A stretch of DNA of 64,000 bases from Thermoanaerobaculia bacterium (GTDB taxonomy: Bacteria; Acidobacteriota; Thermoanaerobaculia; Multivoradales; Multivoraceae): assembly GCA_963666565.1 (NCBI GenBank), contig OY762911.1, positions 1,632,001 through 1,696,000 on the forward strand, read 5' to 3'. Below the pieces are notes generated by a model. It was not told the DNA's origin. It saw only the letters and a program-made list of their open reading frames with translations, and did no database searches. This document shows positions 9,700-64,000 of this stretch, in pieces. The position numbers and the translations under genes were made by a program. Each line of letters opens with the position of its first letter. Position 1 is the stretch's first letter.

Positions 9700-9716
9700 G
9701 GGTACCCGCCGCGACG

Positions 9717-11343: not shown

Positions 11344-12489
11344 TCAGGCCGGCGCCCTTCCGGCGAGAACCTCGCGGTAGATGTCGAGGGTGCTCCCGGC
11401 GGTCCTGTCCCAACGAAAACGGGAGGACCGTTCGGCGCCGCGCTCGGCCAGGCGCCTCGCGTGGTCGCGGTCGGTCATGCAGAGCTCGATCGCGTCCGCG
11501 ATCTCCTCGACCTCGAGCGGGTTGACGAGTTCCGCGTAGCCCTTCGCGATCTCCTTGAGCGACGAGGTGTTCGAGGTGACGACCGGCACGCCCGAGGCCA
11601 TCGCCTCGGCGACCGGCAGTCCGAAGCCCTCGTACAGGGTGGGGTAGAGGAACAGGCTCGCCCCCTGGTACAGGGCCGGAAGGACCTCGCCGTCCACGTG
11701 GCCGAGCAGGCGGATGCGGTCGCCGATCCCGAGCTGGCGGGCCCGGCGTTCCAGCTTGAAGTCGCTGCCGGGCCGGGCGCCGACGCAGACGAGCGGCGCC
11801 TCGAAGCCGGCACGCGACCGGGCCCGCGCGTAGGCCTTGATCACCCGGTCGAGGTTCTTGTGGGGCTTCGGGTTGCCGACGAACAGCAGGTAGGGCCGGC
11901 TGACGCCGGCGCCGTCCAGGGCGGCGCCGAGTTCGTCGTCCGCGAGCGGCCGGCGGAAGCGGTCCTCGACGCCGTTGTAGACGACGCGGACCTTCTCGGG
12001 GTCGACGCGGAAGTAGTTGAGTACGTCGTCGCGCGTGTTGCGCGACACGGCGACGATCCGGTCGGCCCGGGCGACGCTGTGGCGGAACATCCCCTGGGCG
12101 TACAGGGACGCGGCGCGGTTGGGCAGAAAGCCGGGATAGAGCAGGTGGATGATGTCGTGGATCGTGACCACCGTCGGGCAGGGCACGATCGCCGGCAGGA
12201 CGTAGTGGGTGGCGTGGTAGAGGTCCAGCCGGGACCGCGAGATGCGCCAGGTCATCGTCCCGATCTCGCGCAGCGAGTACACCGGCGCGCGTTCGACGAC
12301 GCACCGGAAGTTCGGCGGCAGGTCGGCCGCGAAGTTCCGGTCCTCGGGCCGCACGAACAGGACGTACTCGTTGCCGCCGCCGGCGCCGCCCGCGGCCTCG
12401 ATGCTGGCCAGGCCGCGGATGAGGTTCGCGACGTAGACGCCGATGCCGAAGTCGCGCACCTTGCGGGCGTCGATGCCGATCCTCGCCAC
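11344..12489 (-). CDS. GT4 family glycosyltransferase
   Basis: VVTIHD, KPHKN, YEGFGLPVAEAMASGVPV. Confidence 0.92.
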   Translation of the reverse strand: MARIGIDARKVRDFGIGVYVANLIRGLASIEAAGGAGGGNEYVLFVRPEDRNFAADLPPNFRCVVERAPVYSLREIGTMTWRISRSRLDLYHATHYVLPAIVPCPTVVTIHDIIHLLYPGFLPNRAASLYAQGMFRHSVARADRIVAVSRNTRDDVLNYFRVDPEKVRVVYNGVEDRFRRPLADDELGAALDGAGVSRPYLLFVGNPKPHKNLDRVIKAYARARSRAGFEAPLVCVGARPGSDFKLERRARQLGIGDRIRLLGHVDGEVLPALYQGASLFLYPTLYEGFGLPVAEAMASGVPVVTSNTSSLKEIAKGYAELVNPLEVEEIADAIELCMTDRDHARRLAERGAERSSRFRWDRTAGSTLDIYREVLAGRAPA

Positions 12490-12528
12490 GGGGCAAGCCT
12501 AGCGCCGCGCTGCCGGGCGCGGCAGCCG

Positions 12529-12558
12529 TTGACAAGTGGTGGCGACCGTTCGTAGCCT
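12529..12558 (+). promoter_or_regulatory. Putative sigma70 promoter of yceD-rpmF-plsX-fab cluster
   Basis: TTGACA (12529-12534), 18 nt, TAGCCT (12553-12558). Confidence 0.5.
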
Positions 12559-12670
12559 TCCGGGTTTGCGCGGCGGCCGCCTTGCCGGAGTCGCGGCGGT
12601 CCGTGAACGAGACGGCGCGGGAGAGGCGGCTCGCGGTTCGAGACGGCGGACGTCTGACGGTGAGAATGGG

Positions 12671-13246
12671 ATGCATCTGCAGCTCGACCAGGCCCGTAAC
12701 GGCCCCCTGCACTGGCGCGATGCCATAAGCGTCGCCGCCGACGATCTGCGCCGCGACGAAGCGCTCGTCCTGGGCGACGTCGACTGCGAAGGCAGCCTGA
12801 CCTTCACCGGGCCGGACTTTCTGCTGCAGGCGCGGCTGCGCTACCGCTGCCGGCTCCGTTGCGACCGTTGCCTGACGCGGTACGAGGAGGACGTCGACCT
12901 GCCGCTGGCGTTCGTCGTCAGGGAGGACGGCGGAGACGCTCCGGCGGCCGCCGACGGCGCCGCGAACGGTGCCGGGGACGAACACGGCGCTCGCGAACTG
13001 GCGCCCGAGGATCTCTCGACGGTGGCCGCGGTGGACGGCGCCGTCGACCTGTTCCGGCTCGTCCGCGAGCACGTCGACCTGAACGTCCCGATGAAACCCA
13101 CCTGCGACGCCGCCTGCCGCGGCCTGTGTCCGCAGTGCGGCGCCGACCGGAACCGGGAAGCCTGCGACTGCGTCGCCGAGCGGGTGGATCCGCGCTGGGC
13201 CGCTCTCGAGGCGGTCCGCGAACGGCTTGTGGATAATCTGAGCTGA
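12671..13246 (+). CDS. yceD: YceD/DUF177 protein
   Basis: CDRCL, C...CRGLCPQCG...C, DPRWAAL; precedes rpmF. Confidence 0.9.
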   Translation: MHLQLDQARNGPLHWRDAISVAADDLRRDEALVLGDVDCEGSLTFTGPDFLLQARLRYRCRLRCDRCLTRYEEDVDLPLAFVVREDGGDAPAAADGAANGAGDEHGARELAPEDLSTVAAVDGAVDLFRLVREHVDLNVPMKPTCDAACRGLCPQCGADRNREACDCVAERVDPRWAALEAVRERLVDNLS

Positions 13247-13279
13247 CCGGCTACCCAGCCACGAAAGGAACGGAAGAAG

Positions 13280-13465
13280 ATGCCCAATCCCAAACGGCGG
13301 CACTCGAAGGCGCGCCGGGACCGGCGGCGGTCCCATGACGCGCTGAAGCGTCCCGCCGGCTCGCTTTGTCCGAACTGCGGCGAAACCAAGCTGCCTCACC
13401 GCGCCTGCAGCCACTGCGGCCACTACCGCGGGCGCGACGTGATCGACGTGGAGGACGTTCTCTAG
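13280..13465 (+). CDS. rpmF: 50S ribosomal protein L32
   Basis: [22 protein letters not shown]...[11 protein letters not shown]. Confidence 0.97.
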
Positions 13466-13498
13466 CCCGGGCGCTCCCGCGCCGCCGGCGTTGATCCC

Positions 13499-14560
13499 AT
13501 GACGAATCCGTCCCCCGCACCCGGCCCGACGGTGATCGCCGTCGACGCGATGGGCGGCGATCACGCCCCGCGGGCCGTGGTCGAGGGGGCGCTGCTGGCG
13601 GCCCGCGAGGACGGACTCCGGCTCCTCCTCGTGGGCCGGCGGGAGGACCTGGAACGGGAGATCGAGGAACTCGAGCCGGCGGCGAGGGCGCGCGGCCGGA
13701 TCGAGATCGTCCAGGCCCGCGAAGTCGTCGGCATGGGCGAGTCGGCACTGGCGGTGCGCCGCAAGCGCGACTCCTCGGTACGGGTCTGCGCGCGGCTGGT
13801 CAGGGAAGGCCGGGCCGCGGCGATGCTGACCGCCGGCAACACCGGCGCCGCCCTGGTCGCCGGCAAGATGGTCATCGGCGTGGCGCCCGGAGTCGACCGG
13901 CCGGCCCTCGCCGTCGTCATGCCGCGCCGCGACGGCAGCACGATCCTGCTCGACGCCGGCGCCAACGTCGATTCCAAGCTGCGCCAGCTCCGCCAGTTCG
14001 CGGTGATGGGCCACTACCTGGCGCAGCAACTCCTGAGCCTGGAGTCGCCGCGGATCGGCCTGCTGTCGATCGGCGAGGAGGTCGGCAAGGGGACGGAGTT
14101 TGTCCGCGAGGTGTTCAAGGCGCTCGACGCGACCGGGCTGAACTTCGTCGGCAACGTCGAGGGCGGCCACGTGTTCGACGGCGCCGTCGACGTCGTCGTC
14201 TGCGACGGGTTCGTCGGCAACGCGATCCTCAAGAGCGCCGAGTCCCTGGGCGAGTTCGTGGGCGGGCAGTTGCGGGACGAAATGGGGCGCACCTGGCGGT
14301 CGCGGCTCGGTTACCTGTTCGCCCGTCCGGCCTTCGAGCGCTTCAAGCGCCGGCTCGACTACAGCGAGTACGGCGGCGCGCCGCTGCTCGGGCTGCGGGG
14401 CGGCTGTTTCGTGGCGCACGGCCGCTCCTCGGCCCACGCGATCCACAGCGCCGTGCGGCGGGCGGTAGAGTTCTGCGAAGCCGACATTCACCTCAAGGTC
14501 AGCGCGAAGCTCTCCGAGGTCGCCTTCGAGACGCGCTCGAAGGCGGTGGTGGCGGGATGA
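13499..14560 (+). CDS. plsX: Phosphate acyltransferase PlsX
   Basis: IAVDAMGGDHAP, AGNTGA, DAGAN, CDGFVGN, YGGAPLLG. Confidence 0.96.
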   Translation: MTNPSPAPGPTVIAVDAMGGDHAPRAVVEGALLAAREDGLRLLLVGRREDLEREIEELEPAARARGRIEIVQAREVVGMGESALAVRRKRDSSVRVCARLVREGRAAAMLTAGNTGAALVAGKMVIGVAPGVDRPALAVVMPRRDGSTILLDAGANVDSKLRQLRQFAVMGHYLAQQLLSLESPRIGLLSIGEEVGKGTEFVREVFKALDATGLNFVGNVEGGHVFDGAVDVVVCDGFVGNAILKSAESLGEFVGGQLRDEMGRTWRSRLGYLFARPAFERFKRRLDYSEYGGAPLLGLRGGCFVAHGRSSAHAIHSAVRRAVEFCEADIHLKVSAKLSEVAFETRSKAVVAG

Positions 14561-15600: not shown

Positions 15601-16526
15601 GCGGGACGGCGTACGTCTTTCCGGGCCAGGGCTCGCAGCGGGTCGGCATGGGCCGCGCTCTCGCCTCCGCCTTCCCCGAGGCGCGGGCGGTGTTCGAGGA
15701 GGCGGACGACACGCTCGGCTTCTCGCTCTCCGGGCTCTGCTTCGACGGTCCCGAGGACGAACTCCAGTTGACCGCGAACACCCAGCCCGCGATTGTCGCC
15801 ATGTCGGTCGCGGTGCTTCGCTGCTACGGGGCGCAGAGTCCGCCGCCGGAGGCGCCGGCCTTCGTCGCCGGCCACAGCCTGGGCGAGTACTCGGCGCTGG
15901 TGGCGGCCGGAGCGCTGGAACTCGCCGATGCGCTGCGGCTGGTGCGGGCGCGCGGCCGGGCGATGCAGCGGGCGGTGCCGGTCGGCGAGGGCGCGATGGC
16001 CGCGATCCTCGGCCTGAGCGAGGAGGACACGGCAGCGGCGTCGGCCCGGGCCGCGAGCGAGACCGGCGGCGTCTGCCAGCTCGCGAACCTGAACGCGCCG
16101 GGACAGATCGTCATCGCCGGCGCGGCCGCGGCGGTCGAGCGCGCGACGGAGCTCGCGTCCGAGGCGGGCGCGCGGCGGGCGATCCCGCTGCCGGTGTCGG
16201 CGCCCTTCCACTGCGCCCTGATGGCGCCGGCGCGCGAGGCGATGGAACCCCTGATCCGGGAGGTGCCGATGGCGGACCCGCAGGTCCCGGTCGTGTGCAA
16301 CGTGGACGCGGCGGCGGTGACGACGGCGGCGGCGGCGCGGGACGCGCTGGTCCGGCAGATCGACGGCGCCGTGCGCTGGTCGGAGTCGGTGGCGCTGATG
16401 GCGTCGCGGGGCGTCGAGCGGCTGGTCGAGATCGGACCGGGCAAGGTGCTGTCCGGGCTCGCGCGGCGCATCGAGCGGCGCCTGAAGGTCCGGGCGATCG
16501 CGGCGCCGGAGGATCTGGCCGGGTGA
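15597..16526 (+). CDS. fabD: Malonyl-CoA:ACP transacylase
   Basis: FPGQGSQ, GHSLGEY, SAPFH; TTG start overlapping the fabH stop. Confidence 0.95.
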   Translation: MSGTAYVFPGQGSQRVGMGRALASAFPEARAVFEEADDTLGFSLSGLCFDGPEDELQLTANTQPAIVAMSVAVLRCYGAQSPPPEAPAFVAGHSLGEYSALVAAGALELADALRLVRARGRAMQRAVPVGEGAMAAILGLSEEDTAAASARAASETGGVCQLANLNAPGQIVIAGAAAAVERATELASEAGARRAIPLPVSAPFHCALMAPAREAMEPLIREVPMADPQVPVVCNVDAAAVTTAAAARDALVRQIDGAVRWSESVALMASRGVERLVEIGPGKVLSGLARRIERRLKVRAIAAPEDLAG

Positions 16527-48779: not shown

Positions 48780-48942
48780 CGGGTGCGCGGGTCTGCCATC
48801 CGTGCGCCCGATGACGGACGCACGGACTGGGACGCTGGCGGCGCGGATACGCGCCAGGGTGCTGGCCCGCTGCCGCCGTAGGCGGCGGCAAGACGCGTCG
48901 GCCGAAGGCCGGCTCCTCTCCCCATCTGCCACCATTGCTCCC

Positions 48943-49368: not shown

Positions 49369-49426
49369 CGCCGCACAACCTGTCGCAGGCCCCAGGTTGG
49401 TCCGAGCACCGATGTCCAGCCCAGTC

Positions 49427-49587
49427 GGGTCAGGAGGGGTCGGCGCACATGTGCCTCTGAACGAGCGACGGCCAAAGCCTCCGCGGAAGCCGACGTCGAA
49501 CCGGAGCGAGTGAAGCGGAGCGAGCGCAACCCCCTCGCATCTCCTCTCAAGCGCGAGCGTCACCTGGGCGCCGACCCCTCCTGACCC
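49427..49587. repeat. Palindromic element copy E3 (20-bp perfect TIR core)
   Basis: GGGTCAGGAGGGGTCGGCGC / GCGCCGACCCCTCCTGACCC; shares GAGCGAC, CGGAGCG and AGCGA-helix-GAGCGTC with E1/E2. Confidence 0.7.
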
Positions 49588-49640
49588 AAGACGGGCGGGT
49601 GCGTCCGACGCCGCTTCGCTGCGTTCTGCGGCAAAGCCTC

Positions 49641-50036: not shown

Positions 50037-50084
50037 CGCGCCGGAGAAACTACCGCACTCCGCTCGAACGCGACAGTGCGACTT

Positions 50085-50221
50085 GGGTGCGCGGGTCTTC
50101 CGACCCGCTGCCGCCGCAGGCGGCGTCCGGAATCGTCGCCGGCCCTTGGCCGACGGCCGTGTTGTCCGGGCTACGCCGCTCGGCGGCGTCGCCCTGGGCG
50201 GGTCGGAAGACCCGCGCACCC
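50085..50221. mobile_element. Intergenic REP doublet (REPIN-like)
   Basis: REP-A 50085-50108 (+) and 50198-50221 (-) inverted around a palindromic spacer. Confidence 0.8.
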
Positions 50222-52531: not shown

Positions 52532-52595
52532 CGGTCGGGCGGGCTTGGCGGAGAACGCTTGATTCTAGCGGCGTGCTGTGTGCTAAGTTCGGCCC

Positions 52596-52835
52596 ATGCG
52601 ATTGCACATCGCGCTGGACGACGACCTCGTGGCCGAACTCGACCGGCGTGCCGGCCCCAGGCAGCGTAGCGCCTTCATCGCTGAACTGATCCAGCGGGGA
52701 CTCGACGACGAACGGCGCTGGGACGACATCGAAGCGGCGCTTGGCGGCATCTCCGACACGGGCCACGAGTGGGACGACGACCCGGCGGAGTGGGTGCGAC
52801 GCCAGCGGCGCGGCGACCGTCGGCGTTCAGGCTGA
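52596..52835 (+). CDS. RHH/CopG-type antitoxin
   Basis: MRLHIALDDDLVAELDRRAG..RSAFI; precedes a PIN gene. Confidence 0.8.
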   Translation: MRLHIALDDDLVAELDRRAGPRQRSAFIAELIQRGLDDERRWDDIEAALGGISDTGHEWDDDPAEWVRRQRRGDRRRSG

Positions 52836-52837
52836 CC

Positions 52838-53227
52838 TTGAGCCGCCTGTTGCTCGATTCGACCGTGCTCATCGACGCCCTTCGGGGCCGTCGGGCGGCT
52901 GCGCAGGTAGCGGCTCTTCGCCGGCAAGGGACCGAGCCGTGGGTATGCGTCGTTTCGGTGGATGAGATCTGGAGGGGCATTCGACCCGGTGAAGAGTTGG
53001 CGGCGAGGAGGCTCTTCAGGGGCCTTCGTCTCGCTCCTCTGGGGAAGGCCCAGGGAATGGTGGCCGGCCGCTGGCGCCGCGAGTTCGCCGAGATGGGCGT
53101 CACGTTGCACCAAGCCGACTGCCTGATCGCCGCGGCCGCCGTCGGCGTCGGCGCCGCATTGGCCACGGCCAACGTGCGCGACTACCCGATGGCGGCGGTC
53201 GAGGTGAGAGAATGGCCAGTGGGTTAG
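52838..53227 (+). CDS. vapC: PIN-domain toxin (VapC-like)
   Basis: LLLDSTVLID, DCLIAAAA, ATANVRDYP; TTG start. Confidence 0.88.
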   Translation: MSRLLLDSTVLIDALRGRRAAAQVAALRRQGTEPWVCVVSVDEIWRGIRPGEELAARRLFRGLRLAPLGKAQGMVAGRWRREFAEMGVTLHQADCLIAAAAVGVGAALATANVRDYPMAAVEVREWPVG

Positions 53228-53633
53228 GGTATCGGCCGGAGGCCCAAAGGCCGCGCCGTTCCCCAGGGAGTCGCTCGGAGCCCGAGCGGTCCTGTTCACC
53301 TTTGAGCAAGGACGCGGAAGCCGAAGCGGAGACCATGTAGAGCCGCAACGCCGGGTTGGTGCCTCATGCGACATGGAGAGCGCCATCCGTGGACACCGCT
53401 TGCAGACTCTGGGACTCCGCTCCACCCTTGGACGCCGTTGCTTCAATCTCCGAATGTAGGCATGAAGCCCGCGCGGGCGTCGGCGCCTTGATGTCGCAAC
53501 TTCCTCCGGCGGCCGCGTGGCACCGACTCCCGGTGATTCTTGGTTTGTGTACAATGGTCGAATCCAAGCAGCTCATGCCAACGGCGCAACGGCTCGTGTC
53601 GCAGAGCGCCGAAAAGTCCTGGGGACACTATAG

Positions 53634-54731
53634 ATGAGAAAAGAAACGAATGAATGGAGCGTCCGCATGCTCGCGGACCTTAGGCCTCGAATCAACGTCG
53701 AGGCGGAGTACCAGCGCAGCAGCGTCTGGTCGCGGGCACAACAGGCGCTCTTGATTGACTCGATTCTCAGAGGCTTCGATGTTCCTAAGATCTACCTCAG
53801 GAAGCTGCCAGATGGAAGTCCTCATCTCTTCGATGTTGTCGACGGGAAGCAGCGGCTTACAGCCATCTGGTCGTTCCTCGAGGATGATTTACCACTCCTG
53901 AAGACAGCCGAGACCTTTCCGGAGGTGGGTGATCTAGGCGGTCGGTCATGGTCAGAGCTTCCGGATCCGGCCCGAGATCGGCTGCAGTTCTCCAGCATTA
54001 CCGTATCGAAGCTGGAGAACGCGTCGGAAGACGACATTCGGGAGTTGTTCCTTAGACTCCAAAAGGGTGAGCCACTCAAGGCTGCGGAGAAGCGCAATGC
54101 TATGGTGGGTCCCGTACGCGACTTCGTCGCGGACACGCTGGCCTGCCATCCGTTCTGGTCTAAGTCTGGAATTCGGGAGGCACGACTTGGCTGGCATGAG
54201 CATTCAGCCATCGTTCTCTCCCTTGCAATACAAGGTGGACCAACCGGAGTAAAGGGAGCGGACCTTCAGCAGCTCTACAGCGAACAGGACTTCGATGCTA
54301 GCGGCGATGCGGCAGAGCGCGCTGTGAGTGTTCTTTCGGCCTTGGAGACGGTGGAGGACGCGGAGGGAGACGCTCTCATTCGCAACCGGTGGGCGGTAGT
54401 GGATTTGGCTGTCGTTGTGATGCGACTTCATCTAGAGGGGCGAACGGTTGACCCGGTGCTCCTTTCTAGCTTCTTTCAGGGCTTCGAGACGGAGCGCTTG
54501 AGGGTTGGACGGGAGCTAAGGAACCTGCAGACGGAGGTCATCGAGTTGTCGACCGATGAGTCGGGTGACGATCTCACGATCTTCCTGCCTTCGGCGGCGC
54601 CCGACATGTTGGTGTACTACCTAGCGTTTTCCAGGGAGGGGGCAAGTAAGGAGAGCGTCCAGAAGCGTACCGACGTCATGTACGAACGTTACATGCAGTT
54701 CTGTGCGTCGGGAAGCGAGGACCCCGAGTGA
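53634..54731 (+). CDS. DUF262 (GmrS/SspE-N-like) protein
   Basis: YQRSSVW, LIDSILRG..P, VVDGKQRLTAI, FLRLQKGEPL. Confidence 0.88.
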   Translation: MRKETNEWSVRMLADLRPRINVEAEYQRSSVWSRAQQALLIDSILRGFDVPKIYLRKLPDGSPHLFDVVDGKQRLTAIWSFLEDDLPLLKTAETFPEVGDLGGRSWSELPDPARDRLQFSSITVSKLENASEDDIRELFLRLQKGEPLKAAEKRNAMVGPVRDFVADTLACHPFWSKSGIREARLGWHEHSAIVLSLAIQGGPTGVKGADLQQLYSEQDFDASGDAAERAVSVLSALETVEDAEGDALIRNRWAVVDLAVVVMRLHLEGRTVDPVLLSSFFQGFETERLRVGRELRNLQTEVIELSTDESGDDLTIFLPSAAPDMLVYYLAFSREGASKESVQKRTDVMYERYMQFCASGSEDPE

Positions 54732-55456
54732 GATTCTCTCGGCCAGTTCTGTTCAGGGCGGCTAGGGTTCTGGCGGTGGTGGTACTTGGCGTACTCGGGG
54801 TCGTGGCTAGTGGTAACTCCGTGGGGATGGGCGTAGCTGCCGGTCTTTGCGGTGTTGCGGTTGTTGTTCTAGAGGTGGGGAGCGCGCGTTGGGAAGGTCG
54901 TTCGGCAAATCCGCTTGGTGCGAAGCATGACGCGGTTCTCGGTCGGGCGATGACCCTGATAGCAGATCTCGCGCAGCTAGCCGGAAGGGAGTACGATCTT
55001 TGGGTGGTGGATTTGTATCTTCCGAAGTACGAGCTATTGGCGTGGTCCCCTTCTCGCTCGGGAACGTTGGGGTTAGCCGTGCACTTGGCGTTGACGGATA
55101 CCCGGAGCGTTCCCAATCAGTTGGATGTCGACGACTCCCTCATAGGATCCGTCTTTTCGGAGTGTCGGCCCGCGCACTGGTGGGATGAGACGCTCGCATC
55201 TTCGGCGGACGAAAATCGGTGGTGGGGGCTTGACGAGAAGAGCAGAGAGCGGTTTCGGGATGAGGAGTACGGTGTGATGAGTGCTTTTCCTGTGGTGAGT
55301 AGCCTGGGTACCGACTGTTGCGGTGTGCTTGTCGTGCACGTCAGGCGCGACGTCGAGGCCGCGACCAAGGCGCTTTCGGTGCTTCGGCAGGAGGAGGGGA
55401 AGCGCAGAGTAGCGGCGGCCTGCCGTGACATGTTCAACCAGTTGAGGTCGGCATAG
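54728..55456 (+). CDS. Hypothetical protein with two N-terminal TM helices
   Basis: GTGA overlap with DUF262; two hydrophobic segments, then a soluble domain (possibly GAF-like: VMSAFPVV...CGVLVVH). Confidence 0.6.
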   Translation: MRFSRPVLFRAARVLAVVVLGVLGVVASGNSVGMGVAAGLCGVAVVVLEVGSARWEGRSANPLGAKHDAVLGRAMTLIADLAQLAGREYDLWVVDLYLPKYELLAWSPSRSGTLGLAVHLALTDTRSVPNQLDVDDSLIGSVFSECRPAHWWDETLASSADENRWWGLDEKSRERFRDEEYGVMSAFPVVSSLGTDCCGVLVVHVRRDVEAATKALSVLRQEEGKRRVAAACRDMFNQLRSA

Positions 55457-55547
55457 GGTTGGCGGAGGCTCGGAGACTCAGGGGTCGTACCGGGTAGGAG
55501 GGCAGGGAAGAGAACGGTTGAGTGGTCAAGTGACCCGGAGAGCGGCG

Positions 55548-56390
55548 TCACTTGTGGCATGCCAAGCACACCTTCGCCTGTCCATAGAGATCGTCGATAT
55601 CCAGAACCTCGGCGTCCGGCCGTAGCGGATTGGGCTGCAGCGTCGCTCGCGTCCGCGCTAGTCGCCGCTGATGATCTTGTCGAATCTGCTCGACGCGCTC
55701 CGGTCGTTCCAGTTCGATCAGGGACTCGCCCTGACTCCAAGTGAAAGGCGACCCGTGTTCAACGGCGGTCTTCTCGTAGGCCTTGGCCTCTTCGAACGCG
55801 TCCGGATGGCGCTCCCTTAGGCGAACCCACTCGATCTTCTGCTGGAAGAAGCAGAACGTGCAGCCGCTCCGAGTGCGCCACTCGTAGTATGTCGGCAATC
55901 CCAATCCGGCGCTGTAGAGGAGCTCAAGCACGCCTTCCTTGTTGATTCCGGCTTCCTTCAAGGGCAAGCGCACCTTGAGGTTCTCGCGTTTTGAGGAGTA
56001 GCCCTCGCGGTACTCTTCGTCGGCCCGGATGGCGACGTAGCTGGTCACTGTGGTGCCCTCCTCAAGTGCTGGTCGGACCCAACTTTCGAAGGGGCGCAGC
56101 TTGAGCATGCGGGTGCACCAGCGGCTCTGAGCGGACGGCAGGAAGTCGTTGTATCGCTTGAGCCAGAAGTCGAAGTCGCGGTCCGGGTTGAGCCGGAGAA
56201 TCGGCTTGCCCAGGAATCCTTCGAGGCGATTGAGGAACTCATAGACCTCTGGAAGTTCCTTGCCGGTGTCGGTGAAGAAGTAGTCGATGTCGAGGTCGGG
56301 ATGGTTCTGGCGCATGTGTACGGCCAGAGCGGCGCTGTCTCGACCGCCCGAGAGACCCAGGACGTGCCATTCGGTCCGTTCACTGCTCAT
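55548..56390 (-). CDS. PAPS-reductase-family protein (SspD/DndC-like)
   Basis: LSGGRDS PP-loop, DTGKELPE, RWCT, RSGCTFC, C-terminal CLACHK. Confidence 0.85.
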   Translation of the reverse strand: MSSERTEWHVLGLSGGRDSAALAVHMRQNHPDLDIDYFFTDTGKELPEVYEFLNRLEGFLGKPILRLNPDRDFDFWLKRYNDFLPSAQSRWCTRMLKLRPFESWVRPALEEGTTVTSYVAIRADEEYREGYSSKRENLKVRLPLKEAGINKEGVLELLYSAGLGLPTYYEWRTRSGCTFCFFQQKIEWVRLRERHPDAFEEAKAYEKTAVEHGSPFTWSQGESLIELERPERVEQIRQDHQRRLARTRATLQPNPLRPDAEVLDIDDLYGQAKVCLACHK

Positions 56391-59300
56391 GAGGTGCCGG
56401 GCTCCGCGTCATCCGCCCCGGTGGCCGAAGGGGAGGCCAAGTAGCGGGCACTTACTTCGGCGAGCGCCGCAAGGACGATGCTGCGGCGCCCGTTTCCGGC
56501 CTCGGTCAGGACGGCATCGAGCCTTGAAGCGAGCGACTCGACATCCGGCCGGTCGAGGTCCCCTACCGCGAACTCGTCGTGCAGGGTGGCCGGAGCGCCT
56601 TCCAGGCCGACGACGACGGCCATCGAGTGGCGCTTGTCGACGCGGCCCTTGACGCGGGCGAAGGCCTCGGCGCGAAGGAAGCCCTGGGCCAGGGCTGCGA
56701 TCTCGACGGTGGCTCGGTCGATGTCGGGATCAACCCAGGCTTGCGGCGGCTTGTTGACTGCCAGGCTGGCGAGCCCTTTGATGTCGTCCTCGGTCCCCTC
56801 GAAGCGGGACAGCCGGACGATGAAGGCCTCGAGACGGTGGTCGCCGCCCAGCTCACGAATGTTCTCGGCGCGATGCCGCAGTTCGCCGAGCATGGCAGGT
56901 GAGGAGTTCGGCACCTGAAGCTCCGAGAGCAGGACCTCTCGCAACCGGCCGAGCATCGCAGGCCATGCCTCGATGAGCTCCGACAGGCCCTGCCGCACGC
57001 GTTCCGCGATGCGCGCAGCAGCATCTTCTTCGGCATCGGCATGAGGCTCCTTCAGGAGCTCGGGCATGTCGTCGAACAGGAGGCGGTTCGGGTCCTTCGC
57101 TTGCCGGAACAAGTGGCGGATGTCGCGAGCGTTGCGCGAGAGTCGCTGCGTACGGCCTGTCCAGGACGGCAGCCTGTCGTGGATCGCTACCAGGCCTCTG
57201 GCCACGTCGATCGGTTCCAAGTACGCGAGTGCGTTGGCGGGGTCCAGGTCCCGAACGACTTCCGCCAACTCAGCGAGTAGTTGCCTGGAAACGCCGCCCA
57301 GGTCCATCCACCGAAACTGAATGTCCGATGCGTCTCGCACCAGGAAGTCGAGGTCCAGGTCCGTGATACGGGTTTGGAACACGCGTTCCCGGTAGAAGGC
57401 CAATTCGCTGTGGTGAGACAGCAGAAGGGCCACCGAGAGTACGGGGAGGAGGCCGTCTTTGATGCCGAGCGGGGGCTGGCGCCAGATGTCGTGGATTTCG
57501 CTGACCGCTACAGCGCGATGGGCGTTGCTCACGAGGAAGTCCCGGGCCGCTTGCCATGCAGGCGCCAGGTGGTGAGTGTCCGAGAGACCCGGCTCGGGCG
57601 CCATGAAGCGCCAGCCGTCCTCCGATCTTCGGTACAACCCGGTCGCCAACAGGAGGGAAACGAAGAGGCCTGCTTCGGCCGGAAACGCCTCGATGCCGAG
57701 CCGTGTCTCGCCCTCGTTCAGCACCATGCGCCGGAGAAGGGCGTTCTGCGCGGCGACAGCGTTGCTCGATGGTCTTGCCCGACCGAGGAGTTCGTTGTGG
57801 AGCCTGGGCGCGTCGTGGAACCGGGCATCGGCCAAGTCGGAGGCCAAGGCGCTCAGGCCGGCGCGTGAGAGTTGAGCGGGCCGTGCATCCTTGCCGTACC
57901 AGGACGCGCTGTCGAACATTCGCGTGATCTCGGTTTCGAGGCTCTGCTCCACGGCTTCGATGCGTGCGTGAACCTCAGCACGAGCGACGCGGTCCCCTTG
58001 CAGCTCGGGAGTTTCGTCCCGCACCCGTTCCAGTGCGGTCAGTTCTCTCGCCAAGTCTCGGATGCCCCATGCGCTGGGGGAGAATCCCGCGAGGACGTCC
58101 CACTCACCGGAGGAGTCGGCGGCATCTCGACACAGGGCCCTCGCTTCGTGCTCCGATTCGCCTTGGGTGGGAATCCCTAGGAGGAAGGCCCCGATCGAGC
58201 CCTGTTGCGGGGAGAAGTCGGCGGCGGCTTGCCCCAACTCCTCCAAAGGCAGAACACTGACATCGAACCACCGGAGGGCCCCTGTCTGGTGGTAGTGGCG
58301 CTTCGCCACGACGTGATCAAGTTCGGTCGACGTGCGCAACACGCGGAAGTCCAGCGCACCGGGTGCGAGAGTTTTGGCTTCGAGCGCTCGGTCGATGTCG
58401 AAGTCGCTGCCCTCGAAGACCGCCCAAGCGTTGGAGAACTTCCGGAAGACTATGAGTGAGCGATCACGCAGGCCTTCCAGAGCGGTAGCGATCTCCTTAG
58501 CCTCGTGTTCCCGGCAAGCCAGCCCAAGTAGCTCTTCGCTAGCCGTCAGGCCGGAGCTTTCCTTGAGCAGGTCCAGGAGCGCGATCACCTTGAGCAGCCT
58601 CTGATCCAGTTCGTCGCATCCCATAGCTTCGCTTCGGCCGAGGGCGTAGGAGGCGAGCGACCAGCGGTGGCTATCCGGCGACACGAGGATCGACGGTTCC
58701 AGGTTGGCGCGCAGATAGTCCCAGAGGCGGTCGGGGGTGTAGATCTCCTCTTCGTTGGCGGTGCGCAAGAAGTCCTGGAAGCCGAGAGGTTCGGCTGAGT
58801 TGAGGAATGCGAACAGGCTCCTCTGGTTCTGTCCGAAGCGACGCCGAGAAAGCGGGCCCAGCAGGCAGGCGACGATGGGGTGCAAGGGCCAGCAGTCGTC
58901 CAGCCTTTCGGCCAGGGTGGTCGATGTCCGCCGTGAGAGTTGGGCTACCTGCGCCGCCAGTTGGCGCGGTCGCTGCGGCCGATGCCCGTTCTCGATCGCT
59001 CGGCCGAGAAGCTCGATCTGTTCCTCGCCGGCCGTGTTGATCGGCAGGTCTACGAACCGGCCCTGGATCTTCGCCCAGTCGTCGCGGGCCTCTCGCGAGA
59101 GCCGATGCGCGTACTCGGCGAAAGCCTGATGGAGGATTCCGACGATGATGAGCCGCCCGCCGCTTCGAGACGCGCGTTCCGCCAATCGTTGAAAGAGGTG
59201 GATGTCGGACCCGTCGTGCGCCGCCGCTTCGAGGAACTTGCCCATCTCGTCGATGAATACGAAGAGACCGCCGCCTGCGCGGGGGTGCCGACCCGCGAGC

Positions 59301-59758
59301 TCCTCCAGCGCGTCAAGGACGCGCGTCTCCGTCCAGGAGTCCGGCGGCAGCCACTCCGACGCTTCGATCGCTTGACCGATGACTCGGGCCGGAGCGTCGC
59401 GCCGGGCGGACACGGGGAGGACCAGCCAGCCACGGGTCCGTGGCGGAAGGGCGCCGGTTAGCGCGTCGAACGTAGCTTCGCCCAGCAGGGATTGGGCCTC
59501 GTTCCGGAGGCGCTTCGCGCCGTTCAGCGCTGCGCCCAGGACGACCGCCAAGCTAGACTTGCCGGCGCCGTAGGGCCCCGTCCAAGTGAACGCGCCCTGT
59601 CCGGTGCTTGCTACGTGGTGGGCCATGATCTCAAGGGCTTCGGCTGAAGAGCGGGGGCAGATGAACCCTTTCAGGGCGGACGGGTCGCTCATGTCCGAGC
59701 CGATGTTGATGGCGCGTTGGTAGCGCCGCGCTACGTGGACCCGTTCTGCCAGCGTCAC
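56387..59758 (-). CDS. Large P-loop ATPase (SspC-like)
   Basis: GPYGAGKS Walker A, FIDEMGK Walker B, KIQGRF, WPLHP, GQNQRSLF; GTG start overlapping the DUF4007 stop. Confidence 0.82.
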   Translation of the reverse strand: MTLAERVHVARRYQRAINIGSDMSDPSALKGFICPRSSAEALEIMAHHVASTGQGAFTWTGPYGAGKSSLAVVLGAALNGAKRLRNEAQSLLGEATFDALTGALPPRTRGWLVLPVSARRDAPARVIGQAIEASEWLPPDSWTETRVLDALEELAGRHPRAGGGLFVFIDEMGKFLEAAAHDGSDIHLFQRLAERASRSGGRLIIVGILHQAFAEYAHRLSREARDDWAKIQGRFVDLPINTAGEEQIELLGRAIENGHRPQRPRQLAAQVAQLSRRTSTTLAERLDDCWPLHPIVACLLGPLSRRRFGQNQRSLFAFLNSAEPLGFQDFLRTANEEEIYTPDRLWDYLRANLEPSILVSPDSHRWSLASYALGRSEAMGCDELDQRLLKVIALLDLLKESSGLTASEELLGLACREHEAKEIATALEGLRDRSLIVFRKFSNAWAVFEGSDFDIDRALEAKTLAPGALDFRVLRTSTELDHVVAKRHYHQTGALRWFDVSVLPLEELGQAAADFSPQQGSIGAFLLGIPTQGESEHEARALCRDAADSSGEWDVLAGFSPSAWGIRDLARELTALERVRDETPELQGDRVARAEVHARIEAVEQSLETEITRMFDSASWYGKDARPAQLSRAGLSALASDLADARFHDAPRLHNELLGRARPSSNAVAAQNALLRRMVLNEGETRLGIEAFPAEAGLFVSLLLATGLYRRSEDGWRFMAPEPGLSDTHHLAPAWQAARDFLVSNAHRAVAVSEIHDIWRQPPLGIKDGLLPVLSVALLLSHHSELAFYRERVFQTRITDLDLDFLVRDASDIQFRWMDLGGVSRQLLAELAEVVRDLDPANALAYLEPIDVARGLVAIHDRLPSWTGRTQRLSRNARDIRHLFRQAKDPNRLLFDDMPELLKEPHADAEEDAAARIAERVRQGLSELIEAWPAMLGRLREVLLSELQVPNSSPAMLGELRHRAENIRELGGDHRLEAFIVRLSRFEGTEDDIKGLASLAVNKPPQAWVDPDIDRATVEIAALAQGFLRAEAFARVKGRVDKRHSMAVVVGLEGAPATLHDEFAVGDLDRPDVESLASRLDAVLTEAGNGRRSIVLAALAEVSARYLASPSATGADDAEPGTS

Positions 59759-60711
59759 TAGGCCACCTTCTCGCGGCCGGACAGTACGTAGTCCTGCTCG
59801 ATGAAGTCGAGCGCTTCGGCCTCGCCCACCGTGTGCGTGCGGATCAACTGCTTCAGTCCCGCGGTCTCGGACCACCGGTACACGCCCCCGGTGTCTTCTT
59901 CCATTCCGAGGAGCCGGTCTGCGAGCGCGTCCTCGTCCAGCAGGAACACCCTGCCGGGCGATCCCGGCTCGTGGGCGAGAGCTTCGAACGACAGCGTCGC
60001 GGCGGCGGAGTAGAGATCCCAGAACTCGGTCACGGCCAGAGCGAACACGCCGGCTCCGAGCGTCGGCTTCTGACCTCGCATGAAGCGGAAGCCGTCACGG
60101 CTTCCCGCGGAGCGGATCAGGCCGAGTTCCGTCAGCGGCGACTCCAGGGCGTCCTCGTAGCTCGCCTTGGCCGAGGTTGGGCGTCGAACGTAACTGCGAA
60201 CGAAGCACTTGACGTCGTTGGCGATCGTGGTTGCCGCCGCTCGTGGCCACCGCCGGTCCTGCTTGAGCTTCAAGATCCCTTGAACCAGCGCATCGCGCTC
60301 GAACGTCATGGACGGATAGTGACCGAACGCCCAGAACCATGTCGTGTTTTTCGGGTTTCCGCAGAGGCGCCAGTGAACGAGCCAAGTCGTCGCCGGGACC
60401 TCCATGTAGGGGTCGAGACCGTCGTCGGCGAACAGGCGTCGCCCGAGTTCGGTAGGCGAGGGCTTGCCGCTCGTCTCCTCGACCACGCCGGCGGCACCGG
60501 CCCAATGGCGCATCGATGCCACCATGTTCCGCCCGACTCCGAACCGGGCGATCGCGTCATCCGCCAGGAAGACGGACTTACCCCCGGCCGGCTCGCCACC
60601 GGTCGCCACCGCGTCGAACGCCTTCTTTAGCCATCCGTAGCGGAGCGGGAAGGTCTCGTGCCCCGAGAGCTTCGGCCGGTATCCGTCTTCGTATAGAGGG
60701 CCTCGGAACAT
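59758..60711 (-). CDS. DUF4007 protein (SspB-like)
   Basis: SGHETFPLRYGWLKK, FGVGRNMVASMRHW, DPYME, W..HW.L, PGRVF.L, ETAGL.Q. Confidence 0.9.
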   Translation of the reverse strand: MFRGPLYEDGYRPKLSGHETFPLRYGWLKKAFDAVATGGEPAGGKSVFLADDAIARFGVGRNMVASMRHWAGAAGVVEETSGKPSPTELGRRLFADDGLDPYMEVPATTWLVHWRLCGNPKNTTWFWAFGHYPSMTFERDALVQGILKLKQDRRWPRAAATTIANDVKCFVRSYVRRPTSAKASYEDALESPLTELGLIRSAGSRDGFRFMRGQKPTLGAGVFALAVTEFWDLYSAAATLSFEALAHEPGSPGRVFLLDEDALADRLLGMEEDTGGVYRWSETAGLKQLIRTHTVGEAEALDFIEQDYVLSGREKVA

Positions 60712-60723
60712 CGGTCTGCGGGG

Positions 60724-60798
60724 CTGGACGCTGTGTCCAGTTCGACAGTAGGCCATTCCGTTGCTAGCGTCAAGGCCGCGCCTGGACTCCGCGTCCAG
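60724..60798. promoter_or_regulatory. Divergent promoter region with two CTGGAC-N5-GTCCAG palindromes and a minus-strand sigma70 promoter
   Basis: Palindromes at 60724-60740 and 60782-60798; TTGACG (60773-60768), 17 nt, TACTGT (60750-60745) on the minus strand. Confidence 0.65.
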
Positions 60799-60809
60799 CC
60801 GCCTCCTGC

Positions 60810-61988
60810 ATGCGCGACGGCGAGATCATCTACGCCGACTATCAGGCGACAACTCCTGTCGACCCGCGTGTGGTCGACCGGATGGCTCCGTACTGGAACG
60901 AGGCCTTCGGCAACCCGCACTCTAGCGACCACATCGTCGGGTGGCGGGCTGCTCAGGCCGTCGAGGATGCCGCGGACTCAGTTGCGGGCTTGATCGGCGC
61001 CGACGCCGACGAGATCGTCTTCACGTCGGGGGCCACAGAGGCGAACAACCTCGCGTTGTTCGGCTTGGCGCGACGAGCGCCGCCGGGCCGTAATCGCATT
61101 CTCGTCAGCGCCATCGAGCACAAGTGCGTCCTTGCCACCGCACGGGCGCTTGCGGCCCGCGAGGGCTTTGTCGTGGAGAGCCTTCCTGTGGACCGGGAGG
61201 GTGTGGTAGCCCCGGCGGACTTGGAAGCGCGAGTCGGCGATGACGTGCTCGTCGCATCCGTCATGGCGGTGAACAACGAGGTCGGGACGGTTCAGGACGT
61301 GCCGGGCTTAGCGGCGGTTCTTCATGCTCGCGGCATACCCCTTCACTGCGATGCCGCGCAGGGGCCTTGCGGCATGTGGGTTGGCGACTTGGCCTCACAG
61401 GCCGACTTGATCAGCCTCTCTGGTCACAAGATGTACGGTCCGCAGGGAGTTGGCGCGCTGTACGTGAGTCGCGATCTTCAGACTGCCCTCGAGCCCCTTA
61501 TCTACGGTGGCGGGCAGCAGGACGGCCTTCGGTCCGGCACTGTGCCACTGCCGCTCTGTGCCGGCCTGGGTAGTGCGGCCGTTTTGCTCACCGGCCCGAA
61601 GGCTACGGAGGAGCGTAAGGAGCTCCGGAGGCTGCGGGACCGGTTTGTAGATCTCCTCCGTGCCGGCACCTACCGGCTGTCGGGGAACGGTCCCGCCACC
61701 GGTGGCCATCCGGGCAACGTCAACCTCCGGTTTCACGGCTACGATGCACGGGACGTGTTGGCGGCGCTGCAACCGCGCCTCGCGGCATCGACAGGTGCGG
61801 CCTGTGCTTCCGGCATCCCCGAGCCGTCGCACGTGCTTCGAGCCCTTCGCCTCAGTGGCGACGCATGCGACGAGTCTATTCGGTTCAGTTTCGGCCGATT
61901 CACGACCGAGGAAGAAGTCGAGGCTGCCGCCGCGCTCGTGCTGCGGGCGTTGGCGTCGCTCCCTGTAGGCCCCCCGCTGGACTGCTGA
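60810..61988 (+). CDS. Cysteine desulfurase (IscS/SspA/DndA-like)
   Basis: DYQATTP, FTSGATEANN, HCDAAQ, SGHKMYGPQG, STGAACASG. Confidence 0.92.
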   Translation: MRDGEIIYADYQATTPVDPRVVDRMAPYWNEAFGNPHSSDHIVGWRAAQAVEDAADSVAGLIGADADEIVFTSGATEANNLALFGLARRAPPGRNRILVSAIEHKCVLATARALAAREGFVVESLPVDREGVVAPADLEARVGDDVLVASVMAVNNEVGTVQDVPGLAAVLHARGIPLHCDAAQGPCGMWVGDLASQADLISLSGHKMYGPQGVGALYVSRDLQTALEPLIYGGGQQDGLRSGTVPLPLCAGLGSAAVLLTGPKATEERKELRRLRDRFVDLLRAGTYRLSGNGPATGGHPGNVNLRFHGYDARDVLAALQPRLAASTGAACASGIPEPSHVLRALRLSGDACDESIRFSFGRFTTEEEVEAAAALVLRALASLPVGPPLDC

Positions 61989-62190
61989 GCCGTGCGGTCT
62001 GAGTGCTACAGTCCGCCGACTTGAGGTCAGGACCCTTGGCTGCAACGAGCAGCCCTGCGGACGCCTGACGCCCTGGAGTTGTTCGTGTGGCACGACGGAA
62101 GAGCTTCGGCCCCGATGCTCTCGGGTAAAGCCCGGAGCGTTCCTCTGACGTTGCCGCAGCGGTTCATCTCAGCATGGCGGGCAGGCTGAA

Positions 62191-63813
62191 GTGCCCTGCC
62201 CGGTGGTTGGCGGCCCCGGTCTCACGGTAGGCCGATTCCTCGATACGATTCCGGACCGAGAGGTTCGCCGCCTCTTGGAGGGCCGCACCTTGGCGCTTCT
62301 GAACGTCGTCTCGGGTTGCGAGGTCGAGGGTCCGCGACTGCGCCTAGCGGTCCGAGCGATGGTGGACTTCGGTGCGCTTCTGGAAGAGTCGAGGAGCCGG
62401 GCACTGGTGCTCGGCCTGCTCCCTGAGCCCAAGCGCGCCGAACTGGGTCACCGCCTTGGCAGGAGCGTGTCCTCGGATGCCGCAGAGAATTGGACCAAGG
62501 CCGATGTCAGCGGCCTTCGTGCCTTCTTCGGACTACTGGAGGACGATCGAGTTGTACCCTCGCCGTTGGCAGCGCCGGTCGAATCGGTCGTGCCCGCCTA
62601 CGGCCTGTTCGATCATCAGCGCGCTGCCGTTCGACGGTTGCTGCCCCTGCTGGCTGAAGACGAGCGTCGAGCGGTGCTGCACTTTCCCACCGGTGCGGGA
62701 AAGACGCGGACGGCGATGCACGTGGTCGCAAAGGCGCTGCGAGACGTTGAACCTTCGGTGGTGGTCTGGCTCGCGTCTGGCAGGGAGCTACTCGAGCAAG
62801 CTCTGCAATCCTTCAAGGAGGCCTGGACACGTCTCGGCACAAGGCCTCTGCAGCTTGGAACCATGTCTGGCAACCGGATGCCTGATCTGGCCGACTTCAA
62901 AGATGGGTTCCTCGCCGTCGGCCTGGAGAAGGGCTGGGCCGTACTCTCGCGGACGGACCCTGACTGGGCTGTGCGACTTGCACCACGTGTGCGATTGGTC
63001 GTCTTCGATGAGGCCCATCGGAGCACCGCACAGACCTATCGCCGCCTTACCGATGATCTGACCCTCGACTATCGCTGTGCACTCCTGGGACTGACTGCAA
63101 CGCCTGGTCGAACCTGGGCAGACATCGACGAGGATGGGGAGTTGGCCGACCTATACTCCAGGGCCAAAGTCGCGCTAGAGGTTCCTGGAGGTGGCAATCC
63201 GGTGAAGTACCTGATTGAGGGTGGCTACTTGGCTCGGCCGTTGTTCCGAACACTCTTCGCTAAACCCGGCGTCGAGATCGACGAGCAGGAAGTCGCCCGG
63301 ATCGCGAGAGCGATGGAGATACCGGAGAAGACCGTCGCTGCTCTGTCGGTGAGTGAACAGTATGTAACGGCCGTGCTTCAAGCGATCGAGGGCCTGCTTC
63401 GTGCTGGGCACCAGCGAGTTCTGGTCTTCGGTGCGAGTGTTGACCAGGTGCTCTTGCTGTCGGGTATTCTCCTTGCGCGCGGAATTCGTGGCTGGGCGGT
63501 CACAGGTCTGACGTCCCGTAGAGATAGAGACCATGCGATTCAGGAGTTCACGGCTGAGGACGACGTGCCCCGAGTTCTTGTGAATTTCGGAGTGCTGACA
63601 ACCGGGTTCGACGCGCCGAAGGCGAGCGCGGTAGTGATCGCAAGACCTACGAAGTCACTCGTCTTGTTCAGCCAGATGGTGGGACGAGCCATCAGGGGAG
63701 AGAGAGTCGGAGGTACGGCAACTTGCGAGATCGTCACCGTTGTGGATCCGAGCCTGCCTGGTTTCGGCGATGTGGCGGAGGCGTTCTTGAACTGGGAGGA
63801 CGTATGGCAATGA
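62191..63813 (+). CDS. SF2 DEAD/DEAH (ResIII-like) helicase
   Basis: PTGAGKT, DEAH, GLTATP, TTGFDAP, QMVGRAIR; start uncertain. Confidence 0.88.
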   Translation: MPCPVVGGPGLTVGRFLDTIPDREVRRLLEGRTLALLNVVSGCEVEGPRLRLAVRAMVDFGALLEESRSRALVLGLLPEPKRAELGHRLGRSVSSDAAENWTKADVSGLRAFFGLLEDDRVVPSPLAAPVESVVPAYGLFDHQRAAVRRLLPLLAEDERRAVLHFPTGAGKTRTAMHVVAKALRDVEPSVVVWLASGRELLEQALQSFKEAWTRLGTRPLQLGTMSGNRMPDLADFKDGFLAVGLEKGWAVLSRTDPDWAVRLAPRVRLVVFDEAHRSTAQTYRRLTDDLTLDYRCALLGLTATPGRTWADIDEDGELADLYSRAKVALEVPGGGNPVKYLIEGGYLARPLFRTLFAKPGVEIDEQEVARIARAMEIPEKTVAALSVSEQYVTAVLQAIEGLLRAGHQRVLVFGASVDQVLLLSGILLARGIRGWAVTGLTSRRDRDHAIQEFTAEDDVPRVLVNFGVLTTGFDAPKASAVVIARPTKSLVLFSQMVGRAIRGERVGGTATCEIVTVVDPSLPGFGDVAEAFLNWEDVWQ

Positions 63814-64000
63814 CGAACAAAGGCGAACAGCTCACCTTTCCGATCATCGATACGAAGATGACGGTTGAGGCGATGCGCGACAGTGGCTACAAGTCCACGA
63901 CGCATGCCTTGGCTGAGTTGATCGACAACGCGATAGAGGCCGACGCCACGTCGATAGAGATCTTCGGCCTAAGCCGCCGGGATCAGAGAACGAACAGATC
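63810..64000 (+). CDS. GHKL/MORC-type ATPase (3'-truncated by window)
   Basis: MTNKGEQLTFPIIDTKMTVEAMRDSGYKSTTHALAELIDNAIEADAT...; ExxxN N-box; ATGA overlap with the helicase. Not in the supplied ORF track. Confidence 0.8.
   Translation, partial: MTNKGEQLTFPIIDTKMTVEAMRDSGYKSTTHALAELIDNAIEADATSIEIFGLSRRDQRTNR

Follow-up and report, generated by a model that had tools for sequence, protein, structure and literature searches.

Analysis of a 64,000-nucleotide stretch of a Thermoanaerobaculia genome (GenBank assembly GCA_963666565.1, contig OY762911.1, positions 1,632,001 to 1,696,000; hereafter the window) revealed, at its right-hand end, a gene island that is best explained as a horizontally acquired phosphorothioate (PT) cassette with a putative function in defence. 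The cassette appears to combine three modules: the SspABCD marking core; a trio of genes encoding a superfamily 2 (SF2) helicase, a MORC-like GHKL ATPase and a predicted nuclease of the HKD/PLD (phospholipase D) type; and a pair of genes encoding a ParB-like DUF262 protein and a membrane-anchored partner. Judged from gene content and comparative genomics, the trio is probably the restriction arm of the Ssp system, apparently undescribed as such, and it is likely that a genuine Ssp core has its dedicated effector in these three proteins. The trio is read as a restriction module because its linkage to SspBCD is conserved among genomes, and the island stands beyond chance because SspD is scarce in the phylum, being present in just 8 of the 401 genomes sampled. 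A preliminary description of the window had anticipated a variant with different or two effector modules, a view for which comparative support is now strong in the case of the trio (SspBCD lies beside it in 59 of 61 loci with at least 8 kb of DNA on both flanks) and moderate in the case of the pair (10 loci).

The marking core can be assigned with near certainty because dedicated hidden Markov models matched it with full-length coverage and its catalytic motifs are intact. All four proteins matched their PADLOC models, with E values from 1e-101 to 0. SspD (55548–56390, minus strand), a PAPS-reductase-like PP-loop enzyme, matched the PADLOC SspD model over positions 2–277 of 277 (1.5e-134) as well as Pfam PAPS_reduct (6.7e-07), and carries the PP-loop SGGRDS at residues 14–19 and CxxC motifs at 177 and 275. 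The large ATPase SspC (56387–59875, minus strand) matched its PADLOC model from residue 42 onwards (E=0, 1247.8 bits), with a weaker match to BrxC (5.5e-111), and has the Walker A motif GPYGAGKS at 100–107; the coordinates given are those of the longest open reading frame (ORF), and the real start is probably near residue 40. SspB (59758–60756, minus strand) is a DUF4007 protein (PADLOC SspB 1.3e-101; Pfam DUF4007 5.4e-84), and its gene forms an overlapping operon with sspC and sspD, the latter two sharing 4 nt. The fourth protein, the cysteine desulfurase SspA (60810–61988, plus strand), is transcribed divergently from sspB; it matched PADLOC SspA (1.2e-122) and DndA (4.1e-119) and Pfam Aminotran_5 (1.7e-74), keeps the SGHK motif and the C-terminal Cys, and matched the NCBIfam IscS and DndA models below their cut-offs. 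Every gene expected of an SspABCD module was found, that is, SspD, the SspC and SspB operon and the cysteine desulfurase, and the earlier recognition of an overlapping DUF4007, large ATPase and PAPS-reductase-like operon with a divergent desulfurase as an SspB/C/D plus SspA core is borne out by ORFs, Pfam and PADLOC alike. SspD residues 176–264 also gave a weak, sub-threshold match to Radical_SAM (0.00025, 21.7 bits); this part of the protein, together with the two CxxC motifs, may be an iron-sulfur or sulfur-relay region.

The first gene of the trio (62191–63813, plus strand) encodes a 540-aa SF2 helicase (ResIII 4.5e-20, DEAD 4.2e-13, Helicase_C 1.9e-12), whose motifs I, II, III and VI (GAGKT, DEAH, TATPGR and QMVGRAIRG) are at least 95% conserved in 73 homologues. 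By sequence, the solved structures closest to it are those of RadD (1.4e-16) and SauUSI (3.5e-12); the best NCBIfam match, to RadD (6.6e-28), fell far below the cut-off, and other family matches were weak (PbeA, 1.4e-18; TIGR04095, 36 bits against a cut-off of 600). The second gene starts with an ATG at 63804, placed behind a GGAGG and overlapping the helicase stop by 10 nt, and extends on the plus strand beyond the window to window-equivalent position 65738. Its 644-aa product is a MORC-like GHKL ATPase (HATPase_c_3 6.3e-19), in which the Bergerat motifs E65-N69, D102xGxG106 and G128-G135 and the S5 motif G369-V-S-L-V-R-A-H-R377 are invariant in 12 aligned sequences. Residues 369–379 fit the MORC-type S5 signature GhXhhpXXRhl with one position (E378) departing from "h", and the best solved relative is human MORC2 (1.5e-08). 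Homologues number at least 2,664 at E<=1e-10, many of them about 70% identical across phyla.

The third gene (window-equivalent 65742–66665, plus strand) begins 3 nt after the GHKL stop and encodes a predicted nuclease of 307 aa (PLDc_2 5.7e-05), in which H88, K90, G101, S102 and N104 are invariant in 35 sequences and define a single HKD motif. The AlphaFold2 model has a mean predicted local distance difference test (pLDDT) value of 91.4, and structure searches matched its N-terminal domain to the PLD nuclease domain of SauUSI (Z 15.2, root-mean-square deviation 2.4 Å over 142 residues), as well as to Nuc, BfiI and NucT. The C-terminal helical half (residues ~150–290) is poorly conserved; the match lists obtained with the whole model were filled by the N-terminal PLD domain, and all Protein Atlas scores for the C-terminal half were <0.9. 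Searches of the PDB by sequence returned no matches for the nuclease or the DUF262 protein, and none of the three trio proteins reached an NCBIfam cut-off. The preliminary description had placed an SF2 helicase and a GHKL ATPase on one side of the core and a short DUF262 protein with a membrane protein on the other, and had expected the island to run on past the window; family scans and ORFs recovered both sets of flanking genes, and beyond the window edge the GHKL gene is completed and followed by the nuclease gene, which ends at 66665.

Comparison of loci across genomes provides the evidence for coupling between the trio and Ssp. A scan with the GHKL alignment, using one genome per species, gave 193 confirmed relatives; the best 80 were kept, yielding 78 loci on which the ten proteins of the window were placed by tblastn. 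At least two of SspB, SspC and SspD were present in 68 of the 78 loci and all three in 65, and both the helicase and the PLD protein were detected in 70. Seven of the ten loci lacking Ssp have just 6–3513 bp of upstream DNA, too short to show it. The order helicase-GHKL-PLD is invariant across loci, and Ssp takes at least six forms of position and orientation relative to it (upstream collinear, upstream inverted, sspA either way, downstream). SspC is 54–87% identical to that of the window in 8 loci and 22–29% identical in 60, revealing two SspBCD lineages, and the trio proteins are 54–88% identical to those of the window in both, which implies that Ssp lineages have exchanged the trio. The loci come from Acidobacteriota, Latescibacterota, Gemmatimonadota, Proteobacteria, Nitrospirales, Spirochaetia, Binatia, Actinomycetota, Chloroflexota, Caldisericales and Bacteroidota, and the trio occurs in cultured, tractable organisms, among them Trichormus variabilis ATCC 29413, Roseobacter litoralis and numerous members of Streptomyces and Kitasatospora.

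A plasmid collection held 13 records with a GHKL relative 31–37% identical to that of the window, and in six of the seven that were examined DUF4007, ATPase and PAPS-reductase genes lie beside the helicase and GHKL genes. The third gene belongs to the PLD family in five (Trichormus variabilis ATCC 29413 plasmid A, Roseobacter litoralis pROLI83, Hymenobacter, Pannonibacter and Mesorhizobium); on an Aminobacter plasmid, which also has the Ssp genes, it encodes a 359-aa hypothetical protein. RefSeq names the plasmid homologues only as "DEAD/DEAH box helicase", "ATP-binding protein" and "phospholipase D family protein". Taken together, the chromosomal and plasmid loci suggest that the trio is very probably coupled to Ssp in function. 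On the Hymenobacter sp. GOD-10R plasmid (L090), a 612-aa DUF262 protein is encoded at 12296–14134, just after the Ssp and trio cassette, and may represent an SspE-like protein present together with the trio.

Several observations weigh against this reading of the trio. The 78 loci are the best-scoring relatives and not an unbiased sample, and 26 of them belong to actinomycete kin sharing one arrangement. Within the 401-genome phylum sample, the full-length GHKL protein occurred in this genome only, and the seven other genomes with SspD lacked the trio; the trio is therefore one of several Ssp partners. The PLDc_2 match of the nuclease lies below the Pfam cut-off, and none of the trio proteins showed an identifiable PT-reading domain. 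Three syntenic Chloroflexota loci (L061, L072 and L080), counted as one event, carry a helicase-GHKL pair 37–38% identical to that of the window, without nuclease and without Ssp, between rhamnose-catabolism and CopCD genes; this pair may be a domesticated remnant. Finally, the Agrobacterium tumefaciens plasmid pAtCFBP7129b (L088) shows no Ssp within 7–10 kb of its helicase and GHKL genes. The gene order there is helicase, GHKL, a 359-aa hypothetical protein, two hypothetical genes and a very large FtsK/SpoIIIE-domain gene, which may represent a different pairing of the helicase-GHKL unit.

These Ssp-less relatives and the lack of a recognisable PT reader would be expected if the trio were an independent restriction or abortive system merely sharing a defence island with Ssp, as defence genes are known to cluster. 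We nevertheless regard this explanation as very unlikely, given that SspBCD adjoins the trio directly in nearly all loci with full flanks, in six arrangements and with two Ssp lineages, and that SspD itself is so rare in the phylum sample. Moreover, the island holds nothing else, and the trio has no modification gene of its own.

Decaying loci bear on the direction in which the trio would discriminate. In L028 and L043, sspD and the helicase gene were lost together, and neither genome has sspD elsewhere; in L023, L040 and L042, Ssp was kept and the helicase, GHKL or nuclease gene was split by an insertion of 1.3–2.6 kb. In contrast, L032, from a metagenome-assembled genome, has an internally deleted sspD with no second copy and an apparently intact trio, which would be unexpected if the trio killed unmarked self DNA and so also weighs against our reading. 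Five of these six loci are consistent with a restriction module that becomes harmful when marking is absent, and one is not, numbers too small to decide the matter. The only lineage lacking Ssp, that of the three Chloroflexota loci, has also lost the nuclease. Among L016, L021, L023, L040 and L042, inserts or insertion sequences were seen in trio genes, and transposases (DDE_Tnp_1, IS66) fill the slot between sspD and the helicase gene.

By analogy with known PT-coupled restriction, we tentatively propose that the trio attacks unmarked DNA, a reading we hold to be plausible though a little short of probable. L032 would instead be accommodated by a trio coupled to Ssp in the manner of SspE, in which the host PT stimulates the effector, incoming DNA is damaged and the proteins are inert, and hence not self-toxic, when PT is missing; SspE offers a precedent for such PT-stimulated action in the available text of PMC8092258 and PMC12065111. 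This alternative appears distinctly less probable, since operons that join a helicase and a GHKL ATPase to an HKD nuclease otherwise form classical restriction systems together with methylases (PMC2292703, as far as its available part goes), and since the loss of sspD and helicase in one deletion at two loci, together with the loss of the nuclease in the Ssp-less lineage, fits self-toxicity better, though in small numbers.

The same loci speak to whether the trio serves defence at all. GHKL/MutL proteins, helicases and nucleases cooperate in repair, and the best family match of the helicase is the repair helicase RadD (by NCBIfam, and by sequence against the PDB), so that the trio could instead serve marking, for example with a MutL-like clamp, a helicase and a nuclease jointly processing SspB nicks or clearing misplaced PT. 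We consider a role of this kind extremely unlikely: seven of the eight SspD genomes of the phylum sample manage without the trio, three loci keep Ssp with a trio knocked out by insertions, the closest structural relative of the nuclease is a restriction nuclease domain, and characterised SspABCD systems need only their four genes according to the part of PMC8092258 that was available.

As a restriction partner of Ssp, the trio might act as follows. SspA, SspB, SspC and SspD, whose roles we infer from strong family membership, would write single-strand PT marks on the host DNA; a dimer of the GHKL protein would serve as an ATP-gated DNA clamp or switch, the helicase would translocate along DNA, and a dimeric HKD nuclease would nick or cut DNA lacking the host PT pattern. 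Such action would resemble that of DndFGH and SspFGH, with both its direction and its division of labour conjectural.

Several described systems share parts of this cassette. SspABCD-SspE, which Xiong et al. reportedly introduced in 2020 as a PT-sensing defence, has the same four core families, and a DUF262 protein is likewise present in the locus here; it differs in that the DUF262 protein here is without DUF1524/HNH and is paired with a membrane protein of GAF-like fold, and in that the conserved partner of the core is the trio. SspABCD-SspE is described in PMC8092258 and PMC12065111, in the portions available. A search of the whole genome (97% complete, in one contig) gave no match to GmrSD_C/DUF1524 and, for SspE, one partial match elsewhere (19.8 bits). 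SspE was ruled out in the absence of DUF1524, in agreement with the earlier remark that no canonical SspE is visible. The further remark that PglZ and BrxL are missing also holds for every ORF of the island, and BREX type 4 was ruled out on this ground and because the BrxC and BrxP matches are weaker than those to SspC and SspD.

SspFGH is the closest parallel in organisation, being a three-gene restriction partner of SspBCD whose probable logic is damage to DNA without PT. The available text of PMC8092258 describes it as comprising a Walker-A protein, SspG and a third protein whose C-terminus is FtsK/SpoIIIE-like, otherwise without recognisable homology. By the authors' description alone, the trio stands apart, consisting of an SF2 helicase, a MORC-type GHKL ATPase and an HKD nuclease, and SspFGH was rejected because no island protein has an FtsK-type domain. 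The preliminary description had allowed that all genes might match SspABCD-FGH models, which would have made this a known system; this did not prove to be the case, as the right-hand genes encode a helicase, a MORC-like GHKL protein and a PLD protein that do not fit SspFGH as described.

The nearest concept for the trio is found in the MORC restriction-modification operons of Iyer, Abhiman and Aravind, who in 2008 predicted that operons of a MORC protein, an SFII helicase and a nuclease are restriction systems acting with DNA methylases (PMC2292703, seen in part). The likeness extends to a GHKL protein with four Bergerat motifs plus S5, an SFII helicase and an HKD-type nuclease, together predicted to carry out ATP-dependent restriction. 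Those operons have a methylase, whereas the island has none and holds SspABCD in its place; Dnd and phosphorothioation are not mentioned in that paper. In DndBCDE-PbeABCD, an HKD nuclease and an SF2 helicase are fused in PbeA, which is encoded beside PT genes (PMC10853773, available part). Here, in contrast, nuclease and helicase are separate genes with the MORC ATPase between them, PbeB, PbeC and PbeD gave no match and PbeA gave only its weak match to the helicase core. SauUSI joins a PLD nuclease and a helicase in one ATP-dependent restriction enzyme, and its PLD domain is the best structural match of the nuclease, but it attacks modified DNA and has no partner modification system. The open literature searched contained no report joining Ssp or phosphorothioation with a GHKL or MORC partner, and a prior mention elsewhere is possible; the terms "MORC" and "GHKL" are absent from the main texts of PMC12839542 and PMC10853773, as are "helicase", "HATPase" and "PLD" from PMC12914056.

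At its left-hand side, the island carries the pair. Its first gene (53634–54731, plus strand) encodes a 365-aa ParB-like DUF262/GmrSD_N protein (Pfam GmrSD_N 5.7e-17, residues 23–156), with PADLOC matches to NsnA (5.2e-25) and PD-T4-2_A (9.5e-10); the motifs QR..xW (27–32) and DGKQR (70–74) are invariant in 8 homologues. No nuclease domain, no match to PADLOC SspE and no NCBIfam match were found in this protein. The second gene (54728–55456, plus strand) overlaps the first by 4 nt and encodes a membrane-anchored protein of 242 aa with a predicted GAF-like fold, for which Pfam, PADLOC and NCBIfam gave no family match. Its AlphaFold2 model shows two hydrophobic N-terminal helices (6–26 and 31–59) followed by an alpha/beta domain, and the top Foldseek matches in the PDB are GAF domains (2qyb E 8.6e-5, template modelling score 0.60 of target); a GAF lead was also found in 13–20% of cluster members in the Atlas. 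The family is small, with 70 clusters at E<=1e-3 among 1.84 billion representatives. In P0153, a partner of the 242-aa type is fused to a DUF262 protein 56% identical to that of the window, which may reflect a genuine fusion or a frameshift in the gene call.

The pair occurs in 9 of the 78 loci and in one metagenome locus, and Ssp genes are visible in nine of these ten. It adjoins sspD in the nine loci that show sspD, lying between sspD and the helicase gene in collinear forms. A Pbe-like module is normally described with Dnd. The single locus (L085) recovered by a metagenome scan with a profile of the 242-aa partner holds, at 176–11155, sspD followed in order by a PbeA-like HKD-helicase fusion, an ATPase of the AAA_23 ABC type, a gene of 160 aa, a methyltransferase-like gene, the pair and an integrase; it is an Ssp locus with a Pbe-like restriction module in place of the trio and with the pair kept. 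Elsewhere a DndB-family protein takes the slot of the pair, preceded in L009 and L022 by a 154-aa protein weakly resembling GIY-YIG proteins. The loci with the pair and those with a DndB-family protein in the slot therefore indicate that a ParB-like protein with a variable partner is a recurrent Ssp accessory, and the distribution of the pair gives moderate support to its being a rarer, optional second module of Ssp loci. On the basis of this gene neighbourhood, the pair is somewhat more probably than not linked to PT. Two features weigh against this reading of the pair: the model of the 242-aa protein has a pLDDT of 70, which is moderate confidence only, and neither protein has a recognisable killing domain. 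A complex prediction for the DUF262 protein and its membrane partner, with a score of 0.01 and a mark of 0.32, weighs neither for nor against binding.

We propose that the pair would most likely be an SspE-like system divided in two, with the sensor separated from an effector or signalling partner that is not a nuclease. In a possible but less likely alternative, the DUF262 protein would restrain PT marking as a DndB-like regulator, its signal input being the membrane GAF-like protein, so that the pair would not be an effector module. The DUF262 protein does combine a DUF262 domain with a C-terminal helical region and no nuclease, an architecture that the available part of PMC12065111 equates with that of DndB, of NsnA and of the N-terminal and middle portions of SspE. 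Ligand sensing is the usual role of GAF domains, and DndB-family genes flank Ssp cores in two same-genus genomes in addition to filling the same slot in other loci. However, the protein did not match the Pfam DndB model, a profile comparison of its family with the DndB-family slot protein of L009 showed no similarity (probability 0.3), and the weak GIY-YIG nuclease-like partner of the DndB-family slot occupant itself suggests sensor-effector pairs. The likeness in domain layout extends to Menshen NsnA and to PD-T4-2, in addition to DndB, but the Menshen system (NsnABC) was not recovered: beyond the NsnA-like match, the next gene belongs to no family, no NsnB ABC ATPase or NsnC is present, and the partner is instead a small membrane family seen here in Ssp loci only.

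Comparison with a sister genome indicates how such modules are combined. In G196, the same Ssp core (78.5% DNA identity over 6.3 kb) lies at another chromosomal place and is followed by a 427-aa gene without known identity and a DndB-family gene in place of the trio; PT systems are therefore built from exchangeable modules. Drawing the modules together, we slightly favour the view that the trio represents an undescribed, widespread class of PT-coupled restriction in which the MORC protein reads, or is gated by, the backbone mark, and that the slot near sspD recruits ParB-like sensors with varied partners. If so, PT marking would have in the trio one more partner besides SspE, SspFGH, DndFGH and Pbe, and the MORC family, which acts in eukaryotic epigenetic silencing, would be linked to the reading of a bacterial epigenetic backbone mark, the first defined epigenetic input for prokaryotic MORC ATPases. 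A known restriction partner (SspE or SspFGH) accompanied only ~15% of 2,678 surveyed sspBCD clusters (PMC8092258, available part), and the cassette would offer a concrete, testable answer for one recurrent class of the partnerless clusters.

Comparison with genomes of the same genus defined the inserted island as 53229 to window-equivalent 66665, ~13.4 kb. Homology with G381 was lost after window position 53228 and returned exactly at the stop codon of the PLD gene, and ~1.26 kb of other DNA occupies the site in G381. Both island flanks adjoin each other in the five same-genus genomes compared. The insertion holds only the nine named genes and one doubtful 93-aa ORF, with a G+C content of 59–68% against 68–75% in the flanks, and the cassette is a mobile island. 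No tRNA genes or integrase were found near it, no repeats of at least 11 nt common to both ends were found, and a promoter and terminator scan of the island gave nothing above shuffles. In the sister genome G186, the equivalent site is "empty", and a different, divergent Ssp cluster with a DndB-family gene (L083; G186:C1, ~451–481 kb) lies ~10–20 kb from that site.

Several candidate genes near the island ends were set aside. A PIN/VapC-type toxin gene (52769–53227, plus strand; Pfam PIN 3.1e-09, NCBIfam VapC below cut-off) was rejected as an island member because it is a conserved flank gene also present in G381, as was a 377-aa gene 3' of the nuclease gene, a flank gene common to G381 at 74% DNA identity. 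The ORF at 52583–53554 (minus strand) is a spurious antisense frame, rich in R, S and P and without family matches, and the 93-aa ORF (53356–53637) is doubtful, having no matches and no space in collinear loci. Short recurring sequences of ~55–210 bp were seen at window positions 48781–48871, 49406–49612 and 50084–50221 and in L002 at ~15736–15791. Present in dozens of copies with 73–97% identity throughout five same-genus genomes, they look like a small dispersed repeat family of the repetitive extragenic palindrome (REP) or miniature inverted-repeat transposable element (MITE) type.

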